The position numbers and the translations under genes were made by a program. 6,621 bases of DNA. It comes from a virus. Lineage: Duplodnaviria; Heunggongvirae; Uroviricota; Caudoviricetes. Shown in pieces: positions 1 to 4,410 of this stretch. Position 1 is the first letter of the stretch, and each line of letters starts with the position of its first letter. The notes beneath the pieces were generated by a model. It saw nothing but the letters and a program-made list of their open reading frames with translations, did no database searches and was not told where the DNA came from. The stretch lies in IMG/VR virus record IMGVR_UViG_3300007747_000100; one strand, 5' to 3'.

Positions 1-99
1 CGGAGAGTCAGGGACATTTATGTTCAGGCAGCCCAGCACATGAGGCCAGTTGTTTTCAGACGCACTGATAACCTGACGGATAAGATCAATGTTTCGCAT
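1..99 (-). CDS. hypothetical protein, N-terminal fragment (gene continues beyond window start)
   Basis: ATG at 99..97 with GGGGG about 7 nt upstream; frame open to position 1 (MRNIDLIRQVISASENNWPHVLGCLNINVPDSP...). Start is 12 nt downstream of the stop of the preceding same-strand gene. Too short for the ORF track. Confidence 0.3.
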   Translation of the reverse strand, partial: MRNIDLIRQVISASENNWPHVLGCLNINVPDSP

Positions 100-111
100 T
101 CTGGCCCCCGT

Positions 112-714
112 TTAGTGCGTCACTGGTGCTTCTGGGATGCCGTTTTCGTTTAGTTCGGCAATAAAGCTGTTGTGAAGATCGGCAAGCACTTCTCGCCCAA
201 ACGAAGTGAGTGTTCCCTGTTCGACATCGAACATGTTGCTGTAAAAAATGATGGCATTCTTTGTTCCGACATCAACACCATATTTCTCGATCATTGCGCC
301 CTCAATGTTGTTTGCCATAGCGAGGCGCTCTGCTACTGGATACAGCGGCATGGCGACGATGCCATTGGAATAAACAGAAACCACGGAATGATTGCCACTG
401 TCATCAATAATGCTGACGGTGCCGTTTTCCTTTCTCATTTCATTGATTAATGCTGTTGCTATCAGCCAGCGCCACATAATCACGTGATGCTGTGATGTGT
501 AATCGAAATATCCCTGGTTGCCGCCACTGGCAATAGCGAGATGTATAAACATGCCTTCATCTGGTTTATCGTCATAATCCCCGGCATCCAGACGATTTAC
601 GGCATCAATATATGAGACGGTCTCAACGCGTTCTGTCATGCCATTGTTGCTGCGGTGCATGATGTTTACGCCGTCAGGCGTTGCTTCTGCATGGAAGGTT
701 AAGAAATTATTCAT
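112..714 (-). CDS. hypothetical protein, about 200 aa (track ORF 112..771 trimmed)
   Basis: The track ORF begins at a TTG (771..769). The first ATG with a Shine-Dalgarno (GAGG, 6-nt spacer) is at 714..712, giving MNNFLTF.... This ATG overlaps the stop of the upstream 57-aa ORF as ATGAATAA. Stop TAA at 114..112. No family recognised. Confidence 0.6.
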   Translation of the reverse strand: MNNFLTFHAEATPDGVNIMHRSNNGMTERVETVSYIDAVNRLDAGDYDDKPDEGMFIHLAIASGGNQGYFDYTSQHHVIMWRWLIATALINEMRKENGTVSIIDDSGNHSVVSVYSNGIVAMPLYPVAERLAMANNIEGAMIEKYGVDVGTKNAIIFYSNMFDVEQGTLTSFGREVLADLHNSFIAELNENGIPEAPVTH

Positions 715-880
715 GTTTCGCCTCGCCTGAATGATTCTGTAACTCATAGAGCAGTGACATAACCGCGCCAATCATTAACTTGTCTCTGTTGCTTGGGCTG
801 GCCCCTTCAAGCCAGAACCCTAAAACAGTCTGAACCTGTTCGATGCGACATTGCGCTTCAATGAGCTGGATGTTGGTCAT
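707..880 (-). CDS. small hypothetical protein, 57 aa (not in ORF track)
   Basis: Manual translation of the minus strand: ATG 880..878 overlaps the TGA of the 87-aa gene (ATGA), with GGAG 8 nt upstream. Open frame MTNIQLIEAQCRIEQVQTVLGFWLEGASPSNRDKLMIGAVMSLLYELQNHSGEAKHE to TAA 709..707, which overlaps the next gene's ATG. Fills what would otherwise be a 105-nt gap in a tightly packed operon. Confidence 0.5.
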   Translation of the reverse strand: MTNIQLIEAQCRIEQVQTVLGFWLEGASPSNRDKLMIGAVMSLLYELQNHSGEAKHE

Positions 881-1140
881 TTCGCACTCTCCACATCGAT
901 TAAACTGATATCTATCAGGGAGGTAACTTTTTGTAGCCAGCTATTGATTACTGTCGCCTGTTCCCCTCCCACCGATGGAAGAATCTCATTCATCACATGA
1001 ACCAGACCTGTGCGCGCTCTGGTAAGCCGTTCAGTCGTGCGATCTGCAAGAGTGAATGTGTCTGGATATGGCTCTTCACGGCTCAGCAATGATTCAATTT
1101 CCAGCTCACACGGATGACGATAAATTAAGTTGATATTCAT
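877..1140 (-). CDS. small hypothetical protein, 87 aa
   Basis: Track ORF; ATG 1140..1138 overlaps the upstream stop (ATGA); GGGGGTG upstream; stop TGA 879..877. Confidence 0.6.
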   Translation of the reverse strand: MNINLIYRHPCELEIESLLSREEPYPDTFTLADRTTERLTRARTGLVHVMNEILPSVGGEQATVINSWLQKVTSLIDISLIDVESAK

Positions 1141-1331
1141 TTTTCACCCCCAAGAATTACCAGCTCTGCACGGGCATCGTTAACCAAAGATGAGCACGCT
1201 TTAATCGCATCCACGACATCAGTAGCGTCCATTTCTTCAGCCGAAAGACTGACAGCAACCAGGACAGCCGCTGCTTGCTCGATTAATTGAAGTGCGGACG
1301 TAAGGCGAGGGGTATTAATTGAGTTATTCAT
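1137..1331 (-). CDS. small hypothetical protein, 64 aa
   Basis: Track ORF; ATG 1331..1329 overlaps the stop of the 72-aa gene (ATGAATAA); G-rich tract about 8 nt upstream; stop TGA 1139..1137. Confidence 0.55.
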   Translation of the reverse strand: MNNSINTPRLTSALQLIEQAAAVLVAVSLSAEEMDATDVVDAIKACSSLVNDARAELVILGGEK

Positions 1332-1542
1332 TGGTTGCCCCCGTTTTTACTGGCATTTCGCCACCTTCCAGCAGGAAATGAACGTCACGAACGGCGAGAT
1401 CCAATATCGCGAGTAACGCCTTCAGTCTTTCGTCTCGTGAGGGAGAGTTGCTCACCAGAATGTCGTTAATCACTTCTGTCAGTGTGATGATCTGGCTTGT
1501 GCGTTCGAGGGGATCCATATGCACATCGTAGTTTTTAATCAT
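1324..1542 (-). CDS. small hypothetical protein, 72 aa (C-terminal segment of the 344-aa track ORF, with its own start)
   Basis: In-frame ATG at 1542..1540 preceded by GGAGG (6-nt spacer) and overlapping the TAA of the 1535..1729 ORF (ATGATTAA). Product MIKNYDVHMDPLERTSQ... has normal mixed composition. Stop TAA 1326..1324. Confidence 0.55.
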   Translation of the reverse strand: MIKNYDVHMDPLERTSQIITLTEVINDILVSNSPSRDERLKALLAILDLAVRDVHFLLEGGEMPVKTGATNE

Positions 1543-1729
1543 GTGCCACCTCCATGCGGATACGACCAGCAAAAAAGCAGATGTGATCGCGCACCAGAGA
1601 ACGGCGAGCATCGCGTTCAGACTCGGCAGCAATATGATGAATTTTGGCGGTAATTGTCGGGCAATCGCGGCGAACTGCGGCGATAATCCAGATAAATTGC
1701 GTTTTTTGGGTAGGGGTAGTAGCCAGCAT
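1535..1729 (-). CDS. small hypothetical protein, 64 aa
   Basis: ATG 1729..1727 preceded by a perfect AAGGAGG with 7-nt spacer. Balanced composition (MLATTPTQKTQFIWIIAAVRRDCPTITAKIHHIAAESERDARR...), whereas the alternative frame (the 344-aa track ORF) over the same bases is Leu/Pro/Ala-rich with no acidic residues. Stop TAA overlaps the next start. Confidence 0.55.
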   Translation of the reverse strand: MLATTPTQKTQFIWIIAAVRRDCPTITAKIHHIAAESERDARRSLVRDHICFFAGRIRMEVAHD

Positions 1730-2358
1730 GTGGCAGCCTCCTTCAGATAGCAGGTTACGCTACCACCGGAAACGCCAATTTCGCTGGTGGTAGCCCAGAC
1801 AGGGTTGGCGTAACCGGCTCTGAAGGATACCGGCGCTTCCGAAGAAGCCCCCGCCTGAGCCACCATTGATTGACAAAGGCGCTGGATTATACACCAACGC
1901 CCAAAAAATGGGTGAGTCAGACCTACGACATAAAAAAAGACGCTCGGCGCGTCATATGTCGCCTTCAGAATTTTCAGGACGCCAATCCCGGCACCCGTTT
2001 TATGAGGTGCCTTATAACCATAAACCGTGTTGCCGCATAACGGCAAGCTCTTTTTTATGGACTCCGAAAACTCACTATTGGAAGTAACGTCACGCGCGTG
2101 GACGAAGGTTTTTGTGGAGTCACTACACGAGCAGAGAAAGCCATCTACGACCAGAAATTCTCTGGCATAGCCGCTGACCTTCTCAACGCTAACACCATCG
2201 ACCGTAATTTCTGACATAGTTAAGGCATCCGCTCCTACCACCAGCAAATGATAAACTTTGCTTGTATCTGCTGTATTAATGTCTGACTTTGCTGTCATAT
2301 TGCTGGATTTTGGCGACATACCAGCCAGTGAAAATGTCTTCTTCTGGACGGGTATCAT
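1730..2358 (-). CDS. hypothetical protein, 5' portion of the 344-aa track ORF; 3' end unresolved (possible frameshift/pseudogene or genuine overlap)
   Basis: ATG 2358..2356 overlaps the stop of the 59-aa ORF (ATGA), GGAGG with 7-nt spacer upstream. The frame stays open to 1324, but downstream of about 1730 the evidence favours two separate small genes. The other two minus frames have stops at 1765..1763 and 1757..1755, just upstream of the next gene's RBS. Contains terminator-like hairpins on both strands. Confidence 0.35.
1932..1953 (-). terminator. terminator-like hairpin plus T-run on the minus strand, inside the long ORF
   Basis: On the minus strand: GACGC / GCGTC stem (1939-1953 in plus coordinates) with a 5-nt loop, followed by seven T (plus-strand A-run 1932-1938). 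The same bases encode ...[10 protein letters not shown] in the ORF frame. Confidence 0.3.
2030..2056 (+). terminator. terminator-like hairpin plus T-run on the plus strand, inside the long minus-strand ORF
   Basis: Stem TTGCCG (2030-2035) / CGGCAA (2041-2046), loop CATAA, then GCTC and TTTTTT (2051-2056). Confidence 0.35.
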
Positions 2359-2534
2359 TGGTTAACCTCCGCGAACTCCTTCATGAAACGCGCCAGCGGT
2401 TGTACGCATGGCGATTGATACCCGTCGCGATAAAACGTCACTCGGTTGTGAGACACGCTTTCGACAGTAACGAGTGCTCCGTGGGCATCTTTGTAGCGTT
2501 TTTGTGGTTGTGGTATTCCTGTTGGCTTAGACAT
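2355..2534 (-). CDS. small hypothetical protein, 59 aa (trimmed from track ORF 2355..2621)
   Basis: Internal ATG at 2534..2532 preceded by GGAGG (6-nt spacer) and overlapping the TAA of the AntA-like gene by 8 nt. The track's longer N-terminal extension would lie out of frame inside that gene. Stop TGA 2357..2355. Confidence 0.5.
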   Translation of the reverse strand: MSKPTGIPQPQKRYKDAHGALVTVESVSHNRVTFYRDGYQSPCVQPLARFMKEFAEVNQ

Positions 2535-3360
2535 TGAGCGCCTCCAGACGCTTGGCGAGCCAGCGTTGCGACAGGTGGGTGAGTTCTCCTTTGCGCTGCT
2601 CATATTCCATGCCCATATCAATTAACGTGATATTGGTGCTTTCGAGATATGAGAGGTGCTCAAGCTGTTCTGCGTTCATATGGTCGCGAGGTTCGCCAGA
2701 ATAGCCATTTATCCGCGCCCACTGCTTAGCAGTTAGCCCACCAAGAACGATACGAGAAATCATATTGCTCTCGTTTGTGTAGTGGTGTTGCTGCGTCGTT
2801 TTCCCCTGCTCGGCACGGGCCATGTTCAGCGCATCGCACATTGGCTTAAAGTTGTTTGCGGCACTGATACGGGCTTTTAGCTGGCGACGATAGCGGGCGG
2901 CGATTTCAGGCACGGTACGCTGTAATTCTTCCTCGCACTGGATGAAATAACGACGGATAGCGCGACCCTGATCATTGCGTTCGATCATTGCCAGTTCTTT
3001 CGCCATTCCGACACTTAACAGATAGTCTTTGCCGGGTCTGCCAGAGTGCTTAATCTTGCTGTAAGCCGCGCCATTCGGGCTTTTCCCCAAATTTGGGGAA
3101 ATTGTTTTATGGACTGAGTAATCGTGCCCAATGGTGAAGTCATATTCAGAGATGCGATCAGTGATCCATGTAGAGAAGTCTTTTCCCACGCCCAACGCTT
3201 TGTGTAACGCTTTTGCGCTAACAATATTGGTTTCACGCCCACCTATATGACCAGAAATAACCGGGACAATTGCGGCAAATTCATTACCGTTAATTGTGCC
3301 CAGAGAGGCGTTCAGATGAGGGGCGGCCTCAGAAATTAATCTGCTTTTTTCGATGTTCAT
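2527..3360 (-). CDS. putative phage antirepressor-like protein (AntA-type N-terminal domain), 277 aa
   Basis: Track ORF; ATG 3360 with GGAG (7-nt spacer). The N-terminal region (...NIVSAKALHKALGVGKDFSTWITDRISEYDFTIGHDY...) resembles the AntA/antirepressor domain as I recall it; this is a family-level call from memory, not a search result. Confidence 0.6.
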   Translation of the reverse strand: MNIEKSRLISEAAPHLNASLGTINGNEFAAIVPVISGHIGGRETNIVSAKALHKALGVGKDFSTWITDRISEYDFTIGHDYSVHKTISPNLGKSPNGAAYSKIKHSGRPGKDYLLSVGMAKELAMIERNDQGRAIRRYFIQCEEELQRTVPEIAARYRRQLKARISAANNFKPMCDALNMARAEQGKTTQQHHYTNESNMISRIVLGGLTAKQWARINGYSGEPRDHMNAEQLEHLSYLESTNITLIDMGMEYEQRKGELTHLSQRWLAKRLEALNV

Positions 3361-3372
3361 TTTTAGTCTCCG

Positions 3373-3678
3373 TTAGGCGGCGTTAAACGCGTCCGGGTAG
3401 AGTTTCAGAATGTCGGCAATTTCCTGCTGAGAAAGTCCGTTGTGATCATTTATGTTCGCAAGATGGTTAACATGAGTGATCACTTTCAGAACATCACCAC
3501 GGCAGGAGAAACGGTAGCGAAGGTGTGTTCCGATACCATCAGGATTCTTTTCGTCGATACGCTCCAGAGTGATTCCAAGCTGGCGTTCTAACTCTGTTGC
3601 ATAGTTACGACCAGAAGACAGACGGCAGTAGCGAAGAATGTCATTTTCTGTCCATCCCTCTATACCAGTACGCAGCAT
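3373..3678 (-). CDS. hypothetical protein, 101 aa
   Basis: Track ORF; ATG 3678, weak AAGAG upstream; 12-nt gap to the next gene; same strand and operon context as alpA. No family recognised. Confidence 0.6.
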   Translation of the reverse strand: MLRTGIEGWTENDILRYCRLSSGRNYATELERQLGITLERIDEKNPDGIGTHLRYRFSCRGDVLKVITHVNHLANINDHNGLSQQEIADILKLYPDAFNAA

Positions 3679-3690
3679 ATAGACTCTTAG

Positions 3691-3716
3691 CCGCCTGTAA
3701 TGGGCGGTTTTTCTTT
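3691..3716 (+). terminator. hairpin plus T-tract in the alpA-to-101-aa intergenic gap, terminator-like on the plus (antisense) strand
   Basis: CCGCC (3691-3695) / GGCGG (3702-3706) stem with a 7-nt loop, followed by TTTTTCTTTT (3707-3716). On the coding (minus) strand there is no U-run after the hairpin. Confidence 0.3.
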
Positions 3717-3720
3717 TCCA

Positions 3721-3939
3721 TCAGGCCACCTTCCCGCGGCGTTCTGCCAGCCAGTTATTAATTTCCACCGCATCAAACGCAGTCACGTTATCTGTTAGCT
3801 TCACTGGGCGTGGAAGAGTGCCATTTTTAACCCATCTATCAATAGTAGGCAGTGAAACACCTAGCAATTCCGGCATGCGAAAGCGACGGATGTATCCAGT
3901 TGTTGGGATAGCTGATGATGCTGGCTTGTGTGCTGTCAT
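3721..3939 (-). CDS. alpA: AlpA/Vis-family phage transcriptional regulator / excisionase-like HTH protein, 72 aa (start uncertain)
   Basis: Segment RMPELLGVSLPTIDRWVKNGTLPRPVKL matches the characteristic AlpA-family helix-turn-helix pattern (recalled family knowledge, so the symbol is family-level). The ATG at 3939 has only a weak SD and the 5' end carries TGATAGCT-type motifs, so the true start could be further downstream (e.g. Met22). Confidence 0.75.
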   Translation of the reverse strand: MTAHKPASSAIPTTGYIRRFRMPELLGVSLPTIDRWVKNGTLPRPVKLTDNVTAFDAVEINNWLAERRGKVA

Positions 3940-3956
3940 ATCTCTAGTAACCTCTC

Positions 3957-3969
3957 TGATAGCTCATGA
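3957..3969 (+). repeat. 13-mer TGATAGCTCATGA, copy 1 (alpA leader / 5' end)
   Basis: Exact 13-bp match to 6435-6447; contains the recurrent oriented 8-mer TGATAGCT. Confidence 0.5.
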
Positions 3970-4020
3970 AGTTACTTAAAGTTTAGTGGTTGCCCATACA
4001 GTATTTCTATTAAGACTAGA

Positions 4021-4052
4021 ATCTATTGAAAGAAATTATAAATCTATTGAAA
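4021..4052. promoter_or_regulatory. operator-like direct repeats ATCTATTGAAA (x2, 21 bp apart) flanking a minus-strand TATAAT; candidate promoter/operator of the alpA operon
   Basis: ATCTATTGAAA at 4021-4031 and 4042-4052. Between them the minus strand reads TATAAT (plus coordinates 4035-4040). No convincing -35 found; the A/T-rich upstream could act as an UP element. About 95 nt upstream of the alpA ATG. Confidence 0.3.
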
Positions 4053-4230
4053 AAATACCGATCCACTGAAAGATTGCAAATACAGGTGGGATAATTATTT
4101 TCTTTATTTTCAATTAGTTACCAGTTTAAAAAATCATTGTTTTATCAAAGAGTTATATCTTTCATCGTCATTCATCATGTTTTTACATTTCTTTTTATCT
4201 TTTATTATTCAATTGGTTGAGTCGGTTTAT

Positions 4231-4270
4231 AATGGCTCATGATGGCTTAAAATGGCTAATGATAGCTGGC
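4231..4270 (+). repeat. four tandem 10-bp repeats (aATGGCTcat / gATGGCTtaa / aATGGCTaat / gATAGCTggc), helically phased
   Basis: Direct reading: core (A/G)AT(G/A)GCT begins at 4231, 4241, 4251 and 4261, exactly 10 bp apart, in the AT-rich region between the 216-aa gene and alpA. Confidence 0.6.
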
Positions 4271-4410
4271 GTATCTTTTAGAGATGGGGTGATTACAGAT
4301 GAACTAAGCCGAACAGATATAGCAATGGCTAGGCATAGAATTATCTATGCTGGTGGAGATGGGTAAACAGGTAATGCCCCGCCATTGCTTTGGAGGGGCG
4401 TGAAAAGTGA

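Follow-up and report, generated by a model that had tools for sequence, protein, structure and literature searches.

A minus-strand gene block as the probable left operon of an Escherichia coli P4-like satellite, with an antisense-RNA immunity region and a P22-like pac-site segment

The minus-strand gene block at positions 1 to 3939 of the 6,621-nucleotide stretch of viral DNA analysed here (IMG/VR record IMGVR_UViG_3300007747_000100, the window) is probably the early or "left" operon of an E. coli P4-like satellite (Gram-negative PICI), and most likely works as that of P4 does. An 18-kb island sited between yicC and dinD, which contains int, alpA, a primase gene and a few P22-type ejection genes, shares 99.9% identity with the window; its int has the same direction as alpA. 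The block runs from an AlpA/Vis-like regulator through a wHTH-like ORF, AntA/Bro, DUF4222, a P4-type immunity region and five or six small ORFs without known function to a P4 alpha-like primase (Table 1).

Table 1. Features of the block, with dN/dS against relatives where a value was obtained for the single gene
Feature	Position	Strand	Basis or remark	dN/dS
alpA, AlpA/Vis-family HTH, first gene of the operon	3721-3939	-	Pfam Phage_AlpA E 6e-6	0.09
orf101, 5'-truncated copy of a conserved, family-specific 143-145 aa protein	3373-3678	-	Homologue lengths	0.12 (orf101/143)
AntA/Bro-network protein, 277 aa	2527-3360	-	Pfam AntA E 2e-21; PHROG anti-repressor Ant E 4e-38
DUF4222 protein, 59 aa	2355-2534	-	Pfam DUF4222 E 1e-24; ATGnnTAA overlap with antA
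P22-like small-terminase gene fragment, antisense to the operon	2095-2210	+	Identity with P22 gene 3
Eta-like read-through frame, 344 codons, annotated "ash family protein"	1324-2358	-	Start at ATGA overlap with DUF4222
PLE-like internal promoter (predicted)	2017-2046	-	-35 TTGCCG 2046-2041, -10 TATGGT 2022-2017, start near 2010
isrK / P4 seqA-like leader RNA	1933-2010	-	Rfam RF01394, 67.8 bits (gathering score 50)
C4 / P4 CI-type antisense immunity RNA	1783-1870	-	Rfam RF01695, 79.9 bits (gathering score 45)
Downstream C4 targets	1737-1780	-	b2 1780-1771, a2 1747-1739
icd/kil-like gene, 64 aa, first translated behind the immunity RNA	1535-1729	-	NCBIfam NF033153 E 1e-19	0.18
orf72	1324-1542	-	Nested in frame at the 3' end of the eta-like frame; coupled to icd stop (ATGATTAA)	0.29 (few relatives)
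orf64, small protein	1137-1331	-	ATGnnTAA overlap and SD
orf87, small protein	877-1140	-	Homologues in 10 of 21 related loci	0.56 (two usable comparisons only)
orf57	707-880	-	73 aa in relatives; in-frame 48-bp deletion in the window
orf200, conserved protein directly 5' of primase	112-714	-	phrog_1515 E 2e-46
Primase-helicase gene, 5' end	1-99	-	783 aa in strain PA45B

Results

Gene order and coding content

The first-pass annotation had described a long polycistron of small, translationally coupled genes, and its observations on strand, overlaps and SD sites held: all ORFs between the window edge and alpA, alpA included, lie on the minus strand, all seven start/stop overlaps are present, either of the ATGnnTAA type (2534/2527, 1542/1535, 1331/1324, 714/707) or of the ATGA type (2358/2355, 1140/1137, 880/877), and most starts have a strong SD sequence of GGAGG/GGGGG type 6-9 nt upstream. 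Intergenic gaps were +12 (3373 to 3360), +42 (3721 to 3678) and +12 (112 to 99). The +42 junction exists in the window but is specific to it, and in relatives the ATG of the second gene overlaps the alpA stop. Compared with its 99.9%-identical relatives, the window lacks 83, 33 and 48 bp directly following positions 3686, 2084 and 748, respectively, and the 83-bp deletion removed the 5' end of the second gene, which encodes 101 aa in the window and 143-145 aa in relatives. The passage from 2358 to 1730 cannot be read as one more small-gene junction: within these ~630 nt lie two genes for non-coding RNAs, together with an internal promoter and an intrinsic terminator, and a single frame of 344 codons runs through them, which shares its reading frame with orf72 but not with icd, although it overlaps both.

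Most ORFs of the block evolve as real genes: dN/dS against relatives was 0.09-0.18 for alpA, orf101/143, antA, DUF4222, icd and orf200, while orf72 and orf57 had values near 0.3 (orf64, with no usable divergence, was left out). The earlier statement that no product apart from the AntA-like one was recognisable was too strong, as the Icd-like gene, DUF4222, Phage_ASH and the P4-alpha-like primase are all identifiable. The alpA product is 32% identical to P4 ORF88/Vis (E 5e-6), and the icd product shares 40% identity with the Kil portion of P4 Eta. The primase-helicase has Zn-ribbon primase, Toprim and DUF5906 domains and aligns with P4 alpha at 33% identity across 335 aa (E 3e-42).

Homology and structure searches gave a function for some products, and six (orf143, orf72, orf64, orf87, orf57/73 and orf200) received no assignment across Pfam, NCBIfam, PHROGs, PADLOC, PDB and structure searches. 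There was no family match for orf72 (NCBIfam and PHROGs among those searched), no significant one for orf64 (Pfam, NCBIfam, PHROGs, PADLOC) and no family or PDB match of value for orf87 (Pfam, NCBIfam, PHROGs, PDB); the 73-aa form of orf57 matched phrog_20558 (unknown function, E 3e-9). All 484 homologues of orf200 are "hypothetical", its AF2 model has a pLDDT of 47, and its C-terminus is faintly similar to P4 Cnr (phrog_5991 E 0.009, BLASTP E 0.1, hhalign probability 1%). The orf101/143 family possibly has a winged-helix fold, judging from an AF2 model (pLDDT 62) of topology H-H-H-strand-strand, for which a fold search gave no significant match.

The immunity RNAs and their targets

In related loci of eight other genera, C4 matched in 18 of 18 and isrK in 17 of 18. 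Of the 15 loci displayed, most keep the promoter block, with constant spacing to isrK position 1, and its P4 version reads TTGCCT at -35 and TATAGT at -10; its sequence suggests an active internal promoter. The leader carries the motifs b1 (1985-1979) and a1 (1969-1962), and the terminator scan placed its intrinsic terminator at 1953-1939 (stem), with a T-run to 1933. In the C4 RNA, positions 1827-1819 form the loop a' (UCCUUCAGA) and positions 1811-1805 form b' (ACGCCAA), and the fold is supported by 98.8% of cells paired and by compensatory changes in 17 of 27 pairs, values that none of 500 shuffles reached.

Downstream, a2 overlaps the icd SD GGAGG (1741-1737). Among 22 loci, P4 included, the cognate C4 loop has 8-11 nt of perfect complement to the icd-SD target in every one, with 15 distinct loop segments, against a mean of 3.3 nt for non-cognate pairs, and the loop and both targets (leader and icd) covary across the set. 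The C4/target duplex has -37.7 kcal/mol compared with -21.9 +/- 3.5 for shuffled targets, and in a 7x7 loop/target matrix the cognate duplex was the strongest in every row.

The long frame across the RNAs

The eta-like frame spans the promoter, both RNAs and icd and terminates at the orf72 stop. Its Pfam Phage_ASH match (aa 113-221, nt 2022-1695) coincides with the RNA genes, and over this part it is 39% identical to P4 Eta. In each of the 22 loci this frame passes through the RNAs without a stop codon, as against 2.7% of shuffles, and in all loci its start has an SD and a stop/start overlap with the preceding gene. A 1-nt spacing difference puts the long frame and icd in different reading frames in 9 of 22 loci (the window and eight others), and therefore the "nested genes" detail of P4 is not exactly transferable.

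The packaging-site segment

The terminase fragment is 85% identical to nt 268-374 of P22 gene 3, a segment that in P22 begins at the annotated pac site, and it has the pac-equivalent 22-mer at 2104-2125 (GAAGGTTTTTGTGGAGTCACTA). It is 91.4% identical to a mosaic terS allele of three IMG/VR phage contigs (L030, L035 and L037), in which the exact 23-mer containing this 22-mer (window 2104-2126) is present. By sequence comparison, 2095-2210 is a copy of the pac-site segment of a P22-like small-terminase allele; no copied pac-site segment in such an operon was found in the literature searched. Arrays of pac-segment units occur in some relatives.

Discussion

The block has the same order of parts as the P4 left operon (PLL-vis-PLE-seqA-cI-seqC-kil/eta-...-cnr-alpha), and its genes parallel the P4 series ORF88/vis, cI/eta/kil, small ORFs, cnr, alpha. 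Homology was detected for AlpA with Vis, for Eta, for Icd with Kil and for the primase with alpha, the same two Rfam families match the P4 leader and CI RNA, the promoter block is common to both, and in P4, too, an open frame traverses the RNAs and is coupled to the preceding gene. The RNA genes and their structure, the three-way loop/target covariation, the overlap of the target with the SD, the open frame, the coupling signals and the P4 homology were all computed here. Unlike in P4, the long frame of the block is nested with orf72 instead of in frame with icd, alpA is separated from the promoter by AntA, DUF4222, the orf143 family and the terminase/pac fragment (the AntA and DUF4222 genes and the fragment are without P4 counterpart), and the downstream small ORFs are unrelated to epsilon/orf151, with a likeness to cnr that is faint at best. 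The annotation of the island contains no sid, delta or psu gene, and the island is thus not strictly a P4.

The P1/P7 immI region (c4 antisense RNA - icd - ant) is similar in that a C4-family RNA comes from the transcript of its own target, and both the RNA family and the Icd family are shared (profile matches here). In immI, as proposed for the block, pairing at two sites (a, b) reportedly blocks the icd RBS, the a site being the variable specificity determinant. The block differs in that it would control replication genes, not an antirepressor, and its AntA-type gene is 5' of the RNA.

In the Gifsy-1 isrK-orf45-anrP locus of Salmonella, too, a leader of the isrK family has a terminator of its own, and behind it lie "orf45", which is conserved in nucleotides, not in protein, and yields a small processed RNA of ~80 nt, and a translationally coupled gene (PMC4825925); in contrast to the block, that coupled gene encodes an antirepressor, the leader is reported to activate in trans and the locus belongs to a full prophage, not a satellite. 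The terms "immI", "icd" and "phage P1" are absent from the text of PMC4825925, and hence that paper appears not to draw the parallel with P1 c4/immI.

Gram-negative PICIs of the EcCICFT073 type resemble the island in int, alpA, Bro-network genes, primase/DUF5906 and a short late zone that includes helper-derived genes. EcCICFT073 uses a cos site, whereas the island has a P22-type pac segment and P22 gp20/gp16-like ejection genes, and it differs from PICIs of that type in the co-orientation of int with alpA. The zones Integration-Bro-Replication-Late have been described for PICIs, and C4/isrK matches were reported in several islands (PMC10111431).

We propose that in the quiescent state the constitutive internal promoter would produce a short leader stopped at its own terminator, and read-through transcripts would be processed to a stable C4/CI-type RNA of ~88 nt. 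Its loop and linker would pair with the two nearby downstream sites, one covering the icd/kil-like SD, and also with both motifs where they recur in the upstream leader, so that icd would stay untranslated, the naked C-rich RNA would be terminated and the coupled small ORFs and primase would be off. Upon induction, transcription would begin 5' of alpA, and ribosomes would traverse the leader, the C4 gene and the targets without a break because alpA, orf143, antA, DUF4222 and the 344-codon frame overlap by 1-8 nt; their passage would block both pairing and termination, and the replication genes would thus be expressed regardless of the immunity state. RNA processing, Rho dependence, promoter activities and the assignment of states are modelled in this scheme on P4, P1 and Gifsy-1.

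A positive switch of the IsrK type overlaps this explanation, and the sole difference is the role of the leader: excess leader RNA would act in trans on the long transcript or on C4 and so open the icd RBS, as an activator or anti-antisense and not as a termination target. The leader does match the isrK family, has its own terminator and shares with the icd target the a and b motifs that covary with the C4 loop, and IsrK supplied in trans raised Gifsy-1 anrP translation more than 100-fold (PMC4825925), a reported trans activation that counts against the leader role proposed above. However, the homologous seqA of P4 is described as a target for CI-caused early termination (PMC10111431), several loci match less well at a1 than at a2 (4-5 nt in five of the 22), and we regard the positive switch as rather unlikely. 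It is very unlikely that the "ash family protein" is a true Bro-network DNA-binding regulator whose amino acids matter and to which the RNA matches are secondary. Pfam, PHROGs and PGAP do class this ORF as a protein family, Phage_ASH is counted within the Bro network by PMC10111431, and the open frame is always the same relative to the RNAs, but dN/dS over the RNA part is 0.74 against 0.09-0.18 in well-sampled flanking genes, RNA pairing with compensatory changes accounts for the conserved columns, the frame splits into two divergent classes 3' of C4, and the sequence 5' of the promoter has been replaced wholesale between relatives.

We give almost no credence to a single unregulated polycistron of about 11 small genes for undescribed host-takeover, anti-defence or toxin/antitoxin proteins, as first suggested for the block. 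Coupled overlaps, SDs and six products without assignable function speak for it, and the suggested translational coupling was borne out, as were the AlpA-family protein in the lead and the place of the genes in the regulatory part of a mobile element; host takeover fits one product, the Icd/Kil-like one, whose family is annotated as host cell-division inhibitors. Against it, the block contains an intrinsic terminator, a conserved internal promoter and two RNA genes, one of them for an antisense RNA directed at the RBS of the first downstream gene, PADLOC and TA-family searches of its products gave only weak HTH/Bro matches, and its genes are ordered as in a satellite replication operon, with the primase last.

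With an antisense-RNA immunity switch in its middle, a copied phage packaging site and the identity of a satellite operon, most of the block is therefore an ordinary member of a described kind and not a block of unknown functions. Its regulatory logic is already published for P4, as set out in passages on the left operon in PMC10111431 (which cites Forti et al. 1999), and has been noted for PICIs.

Organization of the operon and its small proteins

We found that all open reading frames from position 3939 to base 1 lie on the minus strand, as the first-pass annotation had described, and that its seven start/stop overlaps are present, four of the ATGnnTAA type (2534/2527, 1542/1535, 1331/1324 and 714/707) and three of the ATGA type (2358/2355, 1140/1137 and 880/877). 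Strong SD sequences precede most starts, with a GGAG, GGAGG or GGGGG motif 6-9 nt upstream in 10 of 12. The junctions had been given as -8 to +42 nt; the overlaps are correct, while the +42 gap was made by an 83-bp deletion of the window itself, which also cuts a 143-145-aa protein to 101 aa (in relatives the ATG of this second gene overlaps the alpA stop), and the interval from 2358 to 1730 is not a small-gene junction at all. Because dN/dS against relatives is low, at 0.09-0.18 for alpA, the second ORF, antA, the DUF4222 gene, icd and orf200 and about 0.3 for orf72 and orf57, most ORFs of the block evolve as real genes; the value for orf87 was 0.56, from two usable comparisons only.

The products had been described as a string of unrecognisable proteins apart from the AntA-like one. 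AlpA, AntA (a Bro-network protein), DUF4222, an Icd-like protein and a primase can in fact be recognised, and the description holds for the second ORF, orf72, orf64, orf87, orf57/73 and orf200. For the last five of these, searches of Pfam, NCBIfam, PHROGs, PADLOC and the PDB gave no function; PDB sequence searches with orf200, orf87, an orf143 profile and AntA returned nothing usable, and the match of orf87 to a designed protein in the PDB had no stretch above threshold. The second ORF (full-length form orf143) is family-specific, with 632 homologues all annotated as hypothetical. Its AF2 model (pLDDT 62, medium confidence) has a helix-helix-helix-strand-strand core, and since the best Foldseek-PDB match (TFIIE/MarR-type winged helices, E 0.07) was not significant, a winged helix, also hinted at by Pfam HTH_91 (E 0.018), stays a hint. 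An AlphaFold2 model of orf200 from a 20-sequence alignment reached pLDDT 47 and was not used for a fold search. This protein occupies the position of cnr in P4, and its C-terminal 60 aa weakly match Cnr (phrog_5991, E 0.009; BLASTP, E 0.1); profile-profile comparison gives this no support (hhalign probability 1%), so that a Cnr relationship is a weak lead from sequence similarity.

The block had further been proposed as a source of host-takeover, anti-defence or toxin/antitoxin functions. PADLOC gave weak HTH/Bro-type matches only, and Pfam, NCBIfam and PHROGs gave no match to known toxin/antitoxin, defence or anti-defence families; new families may of course be present. The six conserved small proteins without function are reasonable targets for further work, and nothing marks them as defence-related. 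The underlying observation was sound; the view of the block as a row of small effector genes still to be explored has for the most part been overtaken.

The island that carries the block

The window is 99.9% identical to E. coli chromosomes. Strain PA45B has an island of about 18 kb between yicC and dinD, and the window corresponds to the left end of this island. At least 80% of the window is present in 178 complete E. coli records, and at least 80% of the 901-bp central region in 481. The primase-helicase of the island has Zn-ribbon, Toprim and DUF5906 domains. The late zone (L001 10387-13832) contains a homologue of P22 gp20 (PF16928, E 2.5e-73) and one of gp16 (PHROG 'DNA transfer protein'), both of the P22 ejection type, and terminase, capsid and tail genes are absent from this zone; from the integrase to the PerC-family gene, only two to three P22-type ejection-protein genes are annotated as virion-related. 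ImmA/IrrE peptidase and PerC-family genes lie at the far end. The island has the traits of Gram-negative PICIs, a class of phage satellites (integrase, AlpA regulator, primase module, about 10-20 kb, without a full virion or lysis set). Close relatives of the operon (L005, L006 and L007) are joined to three different primase types (DUF5906, TOPRIM plus DUF927, and P4-family primase), hence the replication module is exchanged independently of the immunity module.

Compared with all close relatives, the window has three clean deletions, which remove 83 bp at 3686/3687, 33 bp at 2084/2085 and 48 bp at 748/749. None of these junctions is present in 5,426 complete E. coli genomes, and the deletions may be real variants, assembly errors or edits. 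A strong plus-strand terminator-like hairpin with a T-run (3689-3709) directly follows the alpA stop with no plus-strand gene before it, and in relatives it lies inside the 5' end of the 143-aa gene. The 470 bp upstream of alpA (3940-4410) are AT-rich (33-35% GC versus about 48% elsewhere); the Rfam int-alpA RNA motif (RF02996) has no match there, and lies between int and alpA in 10 of 18 related loci.

Features of the operon in the window and gene order of the PA45B island
Feature	Position	Strand	Evidence or remark
Predicted promoter	-35 TTGCCG 2046-2041, -10 TATGGT 2022-2017	-	block kept in most of 15 loci displayed; start at isrK position 1
isrK RNA	2010-1933	operon strand (-)	RF01394, 67.8 bits vs gathering score 50
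Intrinsic terminator at isrK end	stem 1953-1939 + T-run	-	terminator scan
C4 antisense RNA	1870-1783	operon strand (-)	RF01695, 79.9 bits vs gathering score 45
C4 loop UCCUUCAGA	1827-1819	-	pairs with UCUGAAGGA and UCUGAAGG
Loop target on icd side, UCUGAAGGA (a2)	1747-1739	-	overlaps SD of icd (1741-1737)
Loop target in leader, UCUGAAGG	1969-1962	-
Constant C4 linker ACGCCAA	1811-1805	-	pairs with UUGGCGU at 1778-1772 and 1985-1979
icd-like gene, 64 aa	1729-1535	-	behind C4, strong SD; NCBIfam 'host cell division inhibitor Icd-like', E 1e-19
Long eta-like frame, 344 codons	2358-1324	-	RefSeq 'ash family protein'
orf200	112-714	-	directly upstream of primase
Small-terminase fragment, 116 bp, inverted	2095-2210	+	piece of mosaic allele, antisense inside eta-like frame
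22-mer at the experimentally defined P22 pac position, GAAGGTTTTTGTGGAGTCACTA	2104-2125	+	exact to mosaic allele
PA45B island, order			tyrosine integrase, 216-aa ORF, AlpA-type HTH gene, block, 783-aa primase-helicase, few small ORFs, two P22 ejection-protein homologues, ImmA/IrrE peptidase gene, PerC-family gene

An antisense RNA switch at the centre of the operon

The central kilobase of the block is an RNA immunity switch of a kind already published. We compared 22 loci, 18 of them collected through the Icd-like protein (Escherichia, Klebsiella, Enterobacter, Leclercia, Raoultella, Pluralibacter, Shimwellia, Atlantibacter and others), together with three diverged E. coli islands and phage P4. 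C4, the CI-type antisense RNA, is matched by Rfam in all 18 Icd-derived loci and in P4, and isrK, the seqA-like leader RNA, in 17 of the 18 and in P4, in the order isrK-C4 upstream of icd; in the three diverged islands both were placed by alignment and conserved motifs rather than by Rfam. Across 21 sequences the Rfam fold of C4 is 98.8% paired, with compensatory changes in 17 of 27 pairs; none of 500 shuffles reached the observed value, and slid controls gave 33-52% pairing. The anatomy of the antisense switch is therefore real.

The variable part of C4 is its hairpin loop; across the 22 loci, a 16-nt loop segment exists in 15 versions, and no fewer than 13 different pairing cores can be distinguished. 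In all 22 loci a perfect loop complement of 8-11 nt overlaps the GGAGG of icd, 8-17 nt upstream of the ATG, and most loci have a second complement in the isrK leader, where the motifs a1 and b1 are complementary to the C4 loop and linker, respectively. Pairing of cognate loops averages 9.0 nt on the icd side and 7.2 nt in the leader, versus 3.3 and 3.6 nt for non-cognate combinations, and in a 7x7 cross-matrix the cognate partner was the best in every row. Loop and targets covary across the loci. The predicted duplex of C4 with the icd leader has -37.7 kcal/mol, versus -21.9 +/- 3.5 when the targets are shuffled. The target motifs in the isrK leader may serve as a termination site, a decoy, or both.

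A perfect TATAAT (1891-1886), 16 nt upstream of C4, was also considered as a second promoter. The window shares this hexamer with PA45B and 21EVA, and it is deleted or altered in the relatives 1296KP and HeN100, so we left it out of the mechanism; it may be an extra C4 promoter of the sub-lineage formed by the window, PA45B and 21EVA.

The long frame across the RNA genes

Both RNA genes sit inside the long eta-like frame, and the Pfam Phage_ASH match to its product (aa 113-221) covers exactly these two genes. Exactly one stop-free frame runs from 60 nt before isrK to the icd start in each of the 22 loci, versus 2.7% of shuffled sequences, and it always begins at an ATG with an SD sequence that overlaps or abuts the stop of the gene before it (in the window, GGAGGTTAACCAATGA). 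As dN/dS over the RNA part is 0.74, the frame is not constrained as a protein there, and its sequence upstream of the promoter is swapped wholesale between relatives. In 13 loci, P4 among them, icd is read in this frame and the two share a stop; in the other nine, including the window, a spacer shorter by 1 nt puts it in another frame. In the window the long frame continues across icd as far as the orf72 stop, so that orf72 is nested within it.

Database annotation of this region is inconsistent: 1324-2358 of the window, L005 3543-4178 and L007 3128-4039 (the latter two in relatives) appear as 'ash family protein' (344-355 aa), as a pseudogene or as a 303-aa 'Icd-like protein', and the 64-aa icd gene is often uncalled. 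Pfam Phage_ASH and several PHROG 'transcriptional repressor' families match translated RNA genes, and the 'ash family protein' with its Pfam and PHROG families is largely a translation of the two RNA genes and the promoter. Searches of the block for new proteins should therefore first exclude this stretch.

Comparison with P4, P1 and Gifsy-1

The left operon of P4 has the same layout (ORF88/vis, the old 'cI/ash' ORF, small ORFs, cnr and alpha), and homology extends to AlpA-Vis (E 5e-6), Eta (E 3e-17), Icd-Kil (E 1e-7) and primase-alpha (E 3e-42); moreover, the P4 leader matches the same isrK family as that of the window. The island differs from P4 in the strict sense: by annotation and BLASTP, sid, delta and psu are not found in the 18-kb PA45B island, and BLASTP gave no similarity of the small ORFs to P4 epsilon or orf151. 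The eta-like frame is open and coupled in 22 of 22 loci, P4 included, and lies outside the icd frame in the window and eight others. In P1 immI the order is c4-icd-ant with an antirepressor as output, whereas here the AntA-type gene lies upstream of the RNA and small ORFs and a primase lie downstream. The isrK-orf45-anrP region of Gifsy-1 fits the same module; previous work on it reported that the leader activates in trans, that the 'ORF' is conserved only at the nucleotide level and that a processed RNA of about 80 nt is formed (PMC4825925). We conclude that the block is an ordinary member of the P4-like/Gram-negative PICI family.

According to the account of P4 in PMC10111431 (2023), which cites Sabbattini 1995 and Forti 1999, a constitutive promoter lies inside eta, transcripts from it end early through interactions of the CI and seqA RNAs and are processed to stable CI RNA, and Kil is translated only on read-through. 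Full-length Eta, in the same account, is made solely when transcription starts at the late promoter upstream; its translation is coupled to that of the alpA homologue and prevents termination. The paper also notes that relatives of CI and seqA in Gram-negative PICIs are picked up by the Rfam models C4 and isrK. Given the shared layout and the mechanism described for P4, the window most probably contains a single operon with two expression states, one nested in the other, as in the P4 left operon; translational coupling would not be incidental and would be the device that carries ribosomes across the immunity region. A P4-type region would involve processing by RNase P/PNPase and Rho-dependent termination (timm) once the target is blocked, and for the window we infer RNA processing, Rho dependence and the behaviour of the promoter; the 5' end of icd is C-rich and G-poor (37 C versus 22 G in 120 nt), a composition that would suit a rut site.

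Fragments of P22-type pac sites

The inverted fragment within the eta-like frame is, over 2104-2210, 85% identical to nt 268-374 of P22 gene 3, the small-terminase gene terS, on the strand opposite the operon, with the 22-bp pac site, as annotated, at the start of the match. When IMG/VR was searched for exact copies of a 23-mer that includes the 22-mer at this position, 16 contigs were found. Of these, 13 are the same satellite, and three have a full-length terS that departs from P22 gene 3 only in a mosaic central segment and has the query sequence at nt 268. A decayed terS under protein selection does not explain the fragment, as by our reading of the alignments the copy in the gene 3 frame has many non-synonymous changes and a stop.

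Family relatives carry P22-pac-like units in the same zone in sense orientation (L007 3470; L012 4571/4599/4631; L013 4614; L015 1843), in some of them as one to three tandem units of about 30 nt (three in L012), whose first base is in each case that of the pac 22-mer. Several units agree exactly with the pac position (nt 268) of different phage terS alleles (L030, L043, L046 and L048); for two of them, the identity extends over 20-23 nt at start + 267 in two further alleles, one in L043 and the other in L046/L048. A scan with a pac pattern built only from two phage alleles gave 13 matches in the 9.9 kb of this zone versus 20 in 190 kb elsewhere, and all nine strong matches were in the zone. 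A search for co-occurrence of the island with P22-like prophages found 258 genomes with a full terS and 66 further unclassified places.

Together, the pac fragments and the P22-type ejection genes in the island hint indirectly that P22-like phages may be the helpers and that packaging may occur by pac mimicry. The interval from the Bro genes to the internal promoter might then be a landing pad for pac sites from P22-like helpers, by which satellites without their own terS would be packaged by several helper terminase specificities, all within a translated regulatory ORF; we regard this fuller proposal as evenly poised between right and wrong. In the literature searched we found no description of pac mimicry of this kind, which is not proof of novelty.

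Implications

The block is of modest interest overall; what adds to it somewhat is that the eta variant lies out of frame, that the switch comes as a series of alleles and that fragments of pac sites are present. The 15 loop forms among 22 loci, each with matching targets, are a ready set of orthogonal antisense switches, and the same C4 loop series is a map of satellite hetero-immunity. If pac mimicry is true, P22-like phages would be helpers of a widespread enterobacterial satellite family, and the stacking of pac alleles would be a way to broaden its helper range.
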